Positions 12,235 through 14,022 of a DNA stretch of 64,000 bases are shown piece after piece. The position numbers and the translations under genes are program-made. Every line of letters starts with the position of its first letter. Position 1 is the first letter of the stretch. The stretch lies in the NCBI RefSeq assembly GCF_988243305.1, contig NZ_OZ547136.1. One strand, written 5' to 3'. The notes beneath the pieces were generated by a model that was not told the DNA's origin, ran no database searches, and saw only the letters and a list, made by a program, of their open reading frames with translations.

Positions 12235-14022
12235 TTATGCAAAATCCTCAAGGTGACGACTGATACTGTTTTCACGGTAACAGGTCACCAGTAATTCACG
12301 GGTTGCCCGGGTGAACGCCACATAAAGCACCGGGATTACTTCAGACTCATCCGCTACACCAGAAGGAATGAAAGACGCATTGATAACCGCCACATACGGG
12401 AACTCCAGCCCCTTACTGCTCTGATATGTCAGTAAATGCACCACATCCTTACGTCGCGAGTATGCCTTCTTGCCTTCCCTGTCAAAACAGGTGGCAAAAG
12501 GCATCCCGCGTTGTGTCATAACGTCCTGCAATTGTTTCGCTGAATGCTCTGTCGGACACAGCACAGCCATAACACTCCAGTGACCGCACAGGGCATGGCA
12601 CTTCTCCAGCCAGTCTGCAACCTGTCTGGCTTCATCACGTTCAGAAGCACAATGCAGGATTTCCGGCTCTGTACCCTCTTCACCGCCTGCCTGTGGCTGA
12701 ACAAGTGGTATTTCACGGTTCTGATGTTTTTCAAAATACTCGCGAGAGAATGCATAAGCAAAGTGCAGAATGCGTTTCGGATTACGATAATTGACCGGCA
12801 GGACAGAAGTGCGTCCCTGCGCCTGAATCCCCACACTGGCCAGAGAAAAGTTCAGAGCCCGCTCCCGCCGATAAATGGACTGGGCATCATCGTACATCAG
12901 GAGCAGTGAACGGGATGCGTTATCAAACAGACGGGCAATCAGGGCCAGCCAGCGACTGTCAAAATCATGCCCTTCATCCACCAGTACAGCATCATATCCG
13001 GCGTCGGTGATTTTCCCGCTGTTCACAGCCTCTTCCAGTGTGCTGAAGCATTTCTCCGGGTAATCCTTTCTGTCAGCCGTCACCTGAATACCGTGGCGTT
13101 TTATCATTGAGGCACACCAGCTGTGAAAATGAGATACCGTAACCCGTGACGTCAGCCCTCTGACATCAATGCATTCCCGCAGATAACTGGCCAAAGTAAT
13201 GTTGTAGCACAGCACCAGAATCTTTCCGGGCGTGGTTTCAGCCAGGTAAAGGCAACGGAATAAAAGAATCATGGTTTTTCCGGAGCCGGCCACACCATGA
13301 ATGACACGATGCCCGTCACCAATATTTCTGGCCAGAATCTCCTGCTGAATATCCATGATTTTGATTTGTGAGTTCTGTTTCACGGTCACTTCAGGAAACA
13401 GATGGGCGCGCAGAATATCTCTCATCCGGGGTGTCACCCGGGTTCTGAATCCCGTGGTAAACATCCCGGCAATTTTTTGCCGGAATACCTCAGGTAAAAC
13501 AGACTGCGTCATTTCATCCTGACAGATTGTCTGTGCTGAAGGAAAAATCTTTTCCACCGCATTCTCATCATTCCCTGTCAGTGCCTTCAGTTGCTGACGG
13601 GTAATGCGGGTGAACACCACACCATACGCCCAGGCCAGGTTCAGCCGCCCCTTATACTGACCGTCATTCTGCCGTAAGCACGGGTCAGCAGGTAAGGCAT
13701 TAACCGTATCACATGCATAACGACGAGCCTGTACCAGCGGATTTATTTCTGATTTCAGAAGACCGTCGGTTTCCAGTGTAACCTGCTCCTGATTTGCTTT
13801 ACGTAATGTGGATACAGTCCAGTCCTTGACCTCCAGAAATACCAGCCCGTTATCCGGGTCAATAATGACAAAATCCGGATGTCGGTTTTTCCGTCCCACC
13901 GGGATATCGTACCAGACAAAGCAATCATCATTCAGAAAGCTCTCCAGTCGTGAAGCCACCCTCCTCTCCCCGGACGTCATTCTCTCCTCAGTGGACGCCG
14001 ATACATTTATCAGTTTCGCCAT
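12235..14022 (-). CDS. NERD nuclease-domain plus UvrD/Rep-like SF1 helicase fusion protein
   Basis: 595-aa ORF; N-terminal NERD-like segment (HPDFVIIDPDNGLVFLEVKDW), Walker A GVAGSGKT, Walker B-like VLVDEGHD; RBS AAGGTG upstream. Confidence 0.8.
   Translation of the reverse strand: MAKLINVSASTEERMTSGERRVASRLESFLNDDCFVWYDIPVGRKNRHPDFVIIDPDNGLVFLEVKDWTVSTLRKANQEQVTLETDGLLKSEINPLVQARRYACDTVNALPADPCLRQNDGQYKGRLNLAWAYGVVFTRITRQQLKALTGNDENAVEKIFPSAQTICQDEMTQSVLPEVFRQKIAGMFTTGFRTRVTPRMRDILRAHLFPEVTVKQNSQIKIMDIQQEILARNIGDGHRVIHGVAGSGKTMILLFRCLYLAETTPGKILVLCYNITLASYLRECIDVRGLTSRVTVSHFHSWCASMIKRHGIQVTADRKDYPEKCFSTLEEAVNSGKITDAGYDAVLVDEGHDFDSRWLALIARLFDNASRSLLLMYDDAQSIYRRERALNFSLASVGIQAQGRTSVLPVNYRNPKRILHFAYAFSREYFEKHQNREIPLVQPQAGGEEGTEPEILHCASERDEARQVADWLEKCHALCGHWSVMAVLCPTEHSAKQLQDVMTQRGMPFATCFDREGKKAYSRRKDVVHLLTYQSSKGLEFPYVAVINASFIPSGVADESEVIPVLYVAFTRATRELLVTCYRENSISRHLEDFA

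Follow-up and report, generated by a model that had tools for sequence, protein, structure and literature searches.

Proteins that join a NERD nuclease domain to a UvrD-type helicase have been catalogued in silico as C3a187, cluster 187 of the 'Cas type 3 Associated' series, a set of three members exemplified by Dole_0738, and such helicase/nuclease combinations were proposed as a possible source of processive DNA degradation with type III CRISPR (Shah et al. 2019). UvrD and NERD also figure in a list of putative CRISPR auxiliary genes (Altae-Tran et al. 2023), a NERD-helicase accompanies some UG34 reverse transcriptases, and 'Nhi-like' and Mokosh type I systems have NERD (PF08378) among their listed domains; NERD nucleases have been validated elsewhere, in HEC-02 and in ZwsA, an RNA endonuclease. 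Here we describe a gene with the full C3a187 architecture, hereafter the NERD-UvrD gene, at positions 12235-14022 on the minus strand of a 64,000-nucleotide stretch of contig NZ_OZ547136.1 (NCBI RefSeq assembly GCF_988243305.1), the whole of which we call the window. A first-pass annotation, made from the letters and open reading frames (ORFs) of the window, had proposed this gene as a single-gene candidate defence protein.

We give roughly even weight to the reading that the NERD-UvrD gene encodes a functional, self-contained, ATP-driven nuclease-translocase that would restrict foreign DNA such as phages and plasmids as a single-gene system, and that is carried in Enterobacterales as optional cargo of type VI secretion system (T6SS) clusters. 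The best PADLOC match of the protein is PDLC01087 'C3a187, NERD+UvrD' (E 8.7e-139), which aligns amino acids (aa) 1-594 to positions 1-556 of a 559-position profile. The C3a187 genes stand beside type III cas cassettes, whereas the gene in the window lies among T6SS debris, IbrAB and Shango, and the annotation of the ~34 kb surrounding the E. coli gene contains no cas genes. The NERD-UvrD architecture is thus already catalogued in silico, and a defence role for it is a candidate one: the proposal gains from the PADLOC match, from Shango and from other defence-type genes in the region, and is held back by the in silico nature of the matching model.

A predicted NERD nuclease joined to a predicted minimal UvrD-type motor

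The first-pass annotation had read the gene as a fusion of a NERD domain to a UvrD-like superfamily 1 (SF1) helicase, and Pfam searches bear this out over the single 595-aa ORF, with NERD at aa 17-108 (E 1.2e-10), UvrD-helicase/AAA_19 at aa 226-385, UvrD_C at aa 407-511 (E 1.2e-16) and UvrD_C_2 at aa 528-579. Both motifs that it had quoted are present in the protein. The gene and its parts are as follows.

12235-14022, minus strand: NERD-UvrD gene, 595 codons plus stop, from ORF call, Pfam and PADLOC PDLC01087
13693-14022, minus strand: NERD PD-(D/E)xK nuclease core, aa 1-110, with putative catalytic residues E19, D50, E64 and K66
13825-13875, minus strand: nuclease residues D50 to K66
13369-13692, minus strand: family-specific alpha/beta region, aa 111-218, linking nuclease and motor, with predicted local distance difference test (pLDDT) values mostly >90
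12235-13368, minus strand: predicted minimal SF1A (UvrD-type) motor, aa 219-595 plus stop
13273-13296, minus strand: Walker A motif GVAGSGKT, aa 243-250
12964-12987, minus strand: motif II VLVDEGHD, aa 346-353

Across an alignment of 61 diverse full-length homologs (27-59% identity), residues D50, G237, G243, G246, G248, K249, D349, E350, Q381, R413, G538, T571 and R572 are invariant, E19, E64 and K66 are among the positions conserved in at least 90% of sequences, and beyond Walker A and motif II further conserved residues occur at the positions expected for SF1 motifs III-VI. Judged from this alignment, the putative PD-(D/E)xK site (E19, D50, E64-x-K66) and the SF1 motifs are under family-wide constraint. 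The region at aa 111-218, with conserved positions L116, G134, D169, R205 and P210, has no Pfam match though it is confidently folded in the structure prediction.

AlphaFold2 returns a single compact model of the whole chain (pLDDT 92.4, predicted template-modelling score 0.89). Foldseek comparison with the Protein Data Bank (PDB) retrieves UvrD, PcrA and Rep, all of which align only with the helicase half (TMq at most 0.52 for the full model), and a PDB sequence search finds helicase cores only; the nuclease was placed by a domain-level AlphaFold2 model. In a sequence alignment with Deinococcus radiodurans UvrD, query residues 508-523 span UvrD 380-560, so that the 2B subdomain is absent, and query residues 313-347 span UvrD 106-225, so that 1B is much reduced; the predicted motor is a minimal 1A+2A core. 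The nearest structural neighbours of the nuclease fold are mostly immune or restriction nucleases, with the following listed values.

LlaBIII Type ISP nuclease domain: 9.0
SLFN12: 8.7
SLFN11: 7.9
Can2: 7.5-7.7
NucS: 7.3
Shedu SduA: 7.2
McrC: 6.8
NucC: 6.3
HamA: 5.9
Hna: 5.2

Against NCBIfam the protein scores 32-63 bits for UvrD, Rep, PcrA and helicase IV, where the cut-offs are 543-1168, and 18-26 bits for AddA/RecB, where they are 696-861. We rejected assignment to the housekeeping SF1A helicases UvrD, Rep, PcrA and helicase IV on scores far under the equivalog cut-offs and on the missing 2B region, and an AddA/RecB-type identity on the equally low scores and on the N-terminal position of the nuclease. 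With these scores and an accessory distribution, the gene shows no orthology to a core housekeeping helicase, and the defence interpretation therefore survives as a hypothesis.

A solitary accessory gene under purifying selection

Among 5426 complete E. coli genomes, 1047 contain some match to the NERD-UvrD gene and 614, or about 1 in 9, carry a near-complete copy covering at least 80% of it; the copy of strain M217 (NZ_AP019189.1) is 100% identical to that in the window. O157:H7 copies keep only the N-terminal 45%, the NERD part, beside an IS66 tnpC gene (for example NZ_CP017436.1, 861713-862509). Alleles that differ by ~5% at the DNA level have dN/dS values of 0.17-0.26, and the intact E. 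coli copies are therefore under purifying selection. Two exact protein forms, of 595 aa and 581 aa, each occur on at least 1000 contigs.

The family extends well beyond E. coli, with 567 clusters (50%-identity representatives, E<=1e-30) whose members are mostly ~600 aa long and align end to end. A scan of species-representative genomes yielded 80 loci, mainly in Beta- and Gammaproteobacteria, with further carriers in Bradyrhizobium, cyanobacteria, a Bryobacterales metagenome-assembled genome (MAG) and two Bacillaceae. Matches occur in 135 plasmid records, which include nine E. coli plasmids, a Pantoea megaplasmid, Vibrio plasmids and 112 Ralstonia megaplasmids, while no full-length homolog was found in 50,697 phage genomes. 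Two distant metagenome representatives lie on short contigs.

The single-gene status given in the first-pass annotation held up in a neighbour test, an all-against-all clustering of 1107 ORFs from 84 loci, 71 of them from outside E. coli. No flanking cluster was present in more than 9 of these 71 loci, and the top cluster looks spurious, an antisense ORF in high-GC DNA; the ORF caller is crude on high-GC genomes. With no recurrent neighbour, the NERD-UvrD gene therefore travels alone.

One plasmid-borne E. coli allele, on the IncFIA/IncFII plasmid p14EC033c (positions 8517-10791 of its locus), has ~91% identity to the gene in the window and lies outside any T6SS context. Ahead of it come a DUF6710 gene and a RelE/ParE toxin gene, and umuDC, an SOS-response peptidase gene and ardA lie within ~9 kb.

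On a Ralstonia solanacearum megaplasmid (707-5125 of its locus) the gene heads a three-gene module and is followed by a Ser/Thr protein kinase gene and a gene for a ~380-aa UvrD-like helicase without nuclease; a Comamonadaceae MAG (8001-12561 of its locus) has the same three-gene module and no T6SS.

Optional cargo of T6SS clusters in Enterobacterales

Several Enterobacterales carry the gene within T6SS clusters, a new and mildly surprising element that the first-pass annotation had missed. In Dryocola clanedunensis (59% identity) the gene order is tssM-tssA-tssF-tssG-tssJ-tssE-hypothetical gene-NERD/UvrD-vasL, and on Pantoea vagans pVag1 (61% identity) it is tssM-tssA-tssF-tssG-tssJ-tssE-NERD/UvrD-vasL, with a 23-nt overlap into vasL that implies co-transcription. 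In Budvicia aquatica (44% identity) the gene comes directly after hcp, on the border of a T6SS cluster. A neighbour-joining tree, which carries no bootstrap support, groups these T6SS-linked members with the E. coli genes in a single clade.

The E. coli loci retain pieces of the same arrangement. Dryocola and P. vagans have an intact single vasL gene after the NERD-UvrD gene, and in the window the corresponding gene is broken.

10494-11841, minus strand: vasL/tagA-type pseudogene split in two, with an ImpA_N ORF at 11401-11841 and a VasL ORF at 10494-11417

Remnants of the 10494-11841 stretch occur in 1507 of the 5426 E. coli genomes, and the NCBI Prokaryotic Genome Annotation Pipeline (PGAP) also marks ShlB/POTRA fragments there. 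In other strains T6SS remnants lie upstream of the NERD-UvrD gene: a tssE pseudogene in OkiPb01682, and tssB with a truncated tssC in O104:H4. The window carries the debris of a T6SS cluster that once held the NERD-UvrD gene, and the gene itself stays intact. This history accounts for an intact gene among T6SS pseudogenes within an island, and it qualifies the defence-island placement of the first-pass annotation, which fits the defence genes around the E. coli copy and leaves out that the ancestral place of the clade is the tssE|vasL junction of a T6SS cluster.

Sister clusters of identical order lack the gene. In Pantoea ananatis tssE and vasL are separated by 327 bp and in Rahnella by 12 bp, and in Enterobacter only a 156-aa hypothetical gene lies between them. 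The gene is therefore optional cargo at tssE|vasL and not part of the T6SS, and we rejected a role as a core or accessory T6SS component on its absence from this junction in these sister clusters. At the other ~70 loci there are no T6SS genes, with the exception of Ralstonia, where the three-gene module lies ~5 kb from an orphan VgrG gene with a PoNi immunity gene.

Start codon and surroundings of the gene

PGAP labels the gene '3'-5' exonuclease' and starts it at 13980 (M15), which drops 14 conserved N-terminal residues. The sequence evidence supports the ATG at 14022 as the better start, because the family consensus in the homolog alignment opens 'MAxxIP' with M1 conserved in at least 90% of sequences, every E. 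coli allele, the plasmid one among them, keeps the first 14 codons from this ATG, and a Shine-Dalgarno-like AAGG lies 5' of it. Around the gene the window contains the following features.

14023-14122, minus strand: native upstream stretch of the NERD-UvrD gene, with the Shine-Dalgarno-like AAGG, ending at the insertion sequence (IS) remnant
14123-14383, minus strand: IS3-family integrase-core remnant, PGAP annotation
11893-12169, minus strand: remnant of a 101-aa ORF, 64 bp downstream of the NERD-UvrD gene, from alignment to intact copies
7737-9592: IbrB/IbrA (ParB-like protein and 3'-phosphoadenosine-5'-phosphosulfate (PAPS) reductase), within a PerC-family regulator/IbrB/IbrA operon at 7389-9592, minus strand
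464-6288, plus strand: complete Shango SngA/B/C (PADLOC E 6e-100, 9e-187 and 3.5e-278)

The neighbours named in the first-pass annotation are thus all real: the Shango genes, the ParB/PAPS-reductase operon and the IS remnant. About 115 bp upstream of the NERD-UvrD gene are common to the O104:H4 allele, with divergence beyond, and the position held by the IS3 remnant in the window is occupied in other strains by a tssE pseudogene accompanied by an Ail/Lom gene, or by a PD-Lambda-1-like gene. In O104:H4 the latter encodes a T5orf172/GIY-YIG protein (E 5e-88; 10982-12226 of its locus) directly upstream of the NERD-UvrD gene, and the same island in OkiPb01682 contains an 893-aa AAA_11/AAA_12+DUF2726 protein resembling Mokosh MkoA/MkoC (4828-7509 of its locus). 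The island region behaves as a variable hotspot.

A functional partnership with the downstream 101-aa ORF is improbable. O104:H4 and OkiPb01682 keep this ORF whole, and in the window a 29-bp deletion with its junction near 12015/12016 breaks it; it has no Pfam or PADLOC match, and it is E. coli-specific, missing from all non-E. coli loci and also from the plasmid, Pantoea and Dryocola copies. On these grounds (the deletion, the lack of a family match and the restriction to E. coli) we rejected a two-gene system in which this ORF is an obligate partner.

Shango consists of SngA (TerB_N, 769 aa), the ATPase SngB (438 aa) and the DEAD/DEAH helicase SngC (732 aa), and lies ~6 kb from the NERD-UvrD gene on the opposite strand. 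Membership of the NERD-UvrD gene in Shango was rejected, as it is neither one of SngABC nor co-inherited with them; O104:H4, the plasmids and the other genera have no Shango nearby. IbrA, the PAPS-reductase-like protein, weakly matches BrxP (E 7e-8). On the other side, ~2.5 kb past the IS remnant, a grp locus for a glycyl-radical propanediol-utilisation microcompartment (grpA-grpO) begins at 16527 on the plus strand.

Possible functions of the NERD-UvrD protein

A nuclease-translocase that acts on foreign DNA is suggested by the intact conserved motifs in one compact chain and by a gene that is solitary, accessory, partly plasmid-borne and absent from phages, with defence genes nearby. In such a mechanism the minimal SF1A motor would load on single-stranded DNA or on DNA ends exposed by replicating or entering foreign DNA and would move with ATP, with the 3'-to-5' polarity usual for SF1A expected, and the attached N-terminal NERD nuclease would cut the DNA as it is tracked, degrading exposed ends and replication intermediates of the invader. 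Since GajB, another trimmed UvrD-like defence protein, showed no unwinding in vitro, the motor may be a translocase or sensor rather than a helicase. What the protein acts on, in which direction it moves, whether its nuclease and motor work together and whether it counters phages or plasmids are the inferred parts of this proposal, which builds on an observed architecture with conserved catalytic residues, on solitary inheritance, accessory distribution and T6SS embedding, and on purifying selection.

Several observations weigh against this proposal. Outside Enterobacterales the gene's neighbours are a housekeeping mix with only scattered defence genes, counted with no background rate: in Pfam and PADLOC scans of 139 immediate neighbours, taken over the top 25 families, the matches listed include glyoxalase, GGDEF, AcrB and tRNA synthetase genes as well as three PDC-S02/YhcG nucleases, two PD-T4-6 kinases, two HipA, two AAA_15 and one C5 methylase. 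Given this mix, the first-pass statement that the architecture recurs in defence islands does not amount to a demonstrated enrichment. In Ralstonia the gene is found in 112 megaplasmid records, at a similar position in those listed, a distribution that looks lineage-conserved rather than mobile. A promoter scan of the ~100 bp upstream found no strong sigma-70 consensus and no minus-strand site. GajB has no helicase activity in vitro, so that motor activity cannot be assumed from motifs. Finally, a partial literature search that included DefensePredictor, E. coli pangenome and domain-centric screens and the HEC systems found no experimental test of a NERD-UvrD fusion.

The protein could instead be an accessory enzyme of DNA repair or recombination that works on host DNA, for example at stalled forks or DNA ends like UvrD, Rep, AddAB and RecBCD, and has no immune function. 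Its closest solved motor relatives are the repair helicases UvrD, PcrA and Rep, the pairing of a nuclease with an SF1A helicase follows the logic of AddA/RecB, many neighbours in other taxa are housekeeping genes, the gene is conserved by lineage on Ralstonia megaplasmids, and the IncF plasmid copy has umuDC and the SOS-response peptidase gene within ~8 kb. We nevertheless consider this unlikely, since the protein scores 18-63 bits against cut-offs of ~540-1170, its domain order is reversed relative to AddA and RecB, the gene is patchy and often truncated in E. coli and located in a horizontally acquired island and on plasmids, and the nuclease fold is nearest to mostly immune or restriction nucleases. 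Another possibility concerns this strain alone, in which the gene might be a silent relic, an ORF of intact appearance that was left behind when its T6SS cluster decayed and that the IS element separated from the operon promoter. The split vasL, the 29-bp deletion in the small downstream ORF, the IS3 remnant 100 bp upstream with no sigma-70 consensus found, the apparent reading of the gene from the T6SS operon in intact clusters and the truncated copies in many E. coli lineages all suit that history. Yet dN/dS is 0.17 between alleles ~5% divergent with all catalytic residues kept, the 595-aa and 581-aa forms are each abundant, the O104:H4 allele shares the native 115 bp upstream, and plasmid copies without T6SS context imply autonomous function, and we regard a relic as quite improbable.

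The T6SS embedding also raises the question of whether the protein serves the secretion system, as a delivered nuclease effector or as an accessory factor of the cluster. Variable genes within T6SS clusters are typically effector-immunity pairs, the members from P. vagans, Dryocola and Budvicia, which lie within or border T6SS clusters, fall in one neighbour-joining clade, PD-(D/E)xK-type T6SS toxins exist and the VgrG island near the Ralstonia homolog contains a PoNi immunity gene, and the small ORF downstream in E. coli is conceivable as an immunity gene. However, the P. ananatis, Rahnella and Enterobacter clusters without the gene show that the machine does not need it, Pfam finds no PAAR, MIX, Rhs or other trafficking domain, and a consistent downstream immunity gene is lacking, with none in P. 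vagans or Dryocola and the E. coli ORF lineage-specific and broken. Some 70 other loci have no T6SS genes, including those in Firmicutes and cyanobacteria, groups in which T6SS are not known, the E. coli IncF plasmid copies likewise lack a T6SS context, and a conserved ATP-dependent motor would be unusual for a delivered toxin; a T6SS-linked function is very doubtful on this balance. A different connection, in which the tssE|vasL junction of one Enterobacterales T6SS type is no random insertion site but a dedicated slot for a co-transcribed nuclease-helicase that functionally couples offence to defence, is a long shot; if it were true, T6SS-firing cells would be armed at the same time against foreign DNA from phages or lysed prey. 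The embedding also bears on whether anti-bacterial weapons and anti-DNA defences are co-regulated.

If the NERD-UvrD nuclease-translocase does protect its hosts, it would add a single-gene nuclease-helicase immunity that is widespread in Proteobacteria, Cyanobacteria and Firmicutes and that, unlike Nhi and Hna with their Upf1-like and SF2 motors, runs on a minimal UvrD-type motor, and the database placeholder C3a187 would become a system. If it has no protective role, it would be an ordinary accessory helicase-nuclease and a minor finding.

Comparison with described nuclease-helicase systems

The general scheme, a nuclease coupled to a helicase motor, is also that of Cas3 and of Nhi and Hna, two validated single-protein anti-phage systems. 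NERD is reported for Nhi-like proteins and is present here at aa 17-108, and the motors differ: the one described here is made of UvrD-helicase, UvrD_C and UvrD_C_2 with no AAA_11 or AAA_12 in Pfam, whereas the Nhi motor is reportedly Upf1-like SF1B with AAA_11/AAA_12, and that of Hna belongs to SF2. No PADLOC Nhi or Hna model is among the 25 listed of 39 matches, and AbiO appears only at E 5e-6.

GajB of Gabija, a UvrD-like SF1 defence protein, provides the next-best PADLOC matches (E 1e-19 to 1e-15), which cover parts of the helicase only, and elements of the UvrD 2B subdomain are missing there as here. Unlike the NERD-UvrD protein, GajB has no fused nuclease and works with a separate TOPRIM/ATPase protein, GajA; no GajA-like gene is adjacent to the NERD-UvrD gene in the annotated neighbourhood. 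AddA and RecB also unite, on one polypeptide, a PD-(D/E)xK nuclease with an SF1A motor and couple translocation to degradation, but they are ~1100-1250 aa long, have 1B/2B subdomains and partner subunits, and carry the nuclease at the C terminus, in contrast to the N-terminal nuclease here.

An N-terminal nuclease ahead of a motor has a precedent in the Type ISP enzymes LlaBIII and LlaGI, which in ~1500 aa also contain an SF2-like double-stranded DNA translocase, a methyltransferase and target-recognition domains, none of which is present here. The UG34 reverse transcriptase-associated NERD-helicase (PADLOC 'RTasNERD-Hel') likewise has an N-terminal NERD and a C-terminal helicase, and its match to the protein is confined to aa 210-425 (E 1.6e-15); the UG34 system includes an adjacent UG/Abi reverse transcriptase, whereas the NERD-UvrD gene, with no reverse transcriptase gene near it, stands alone.

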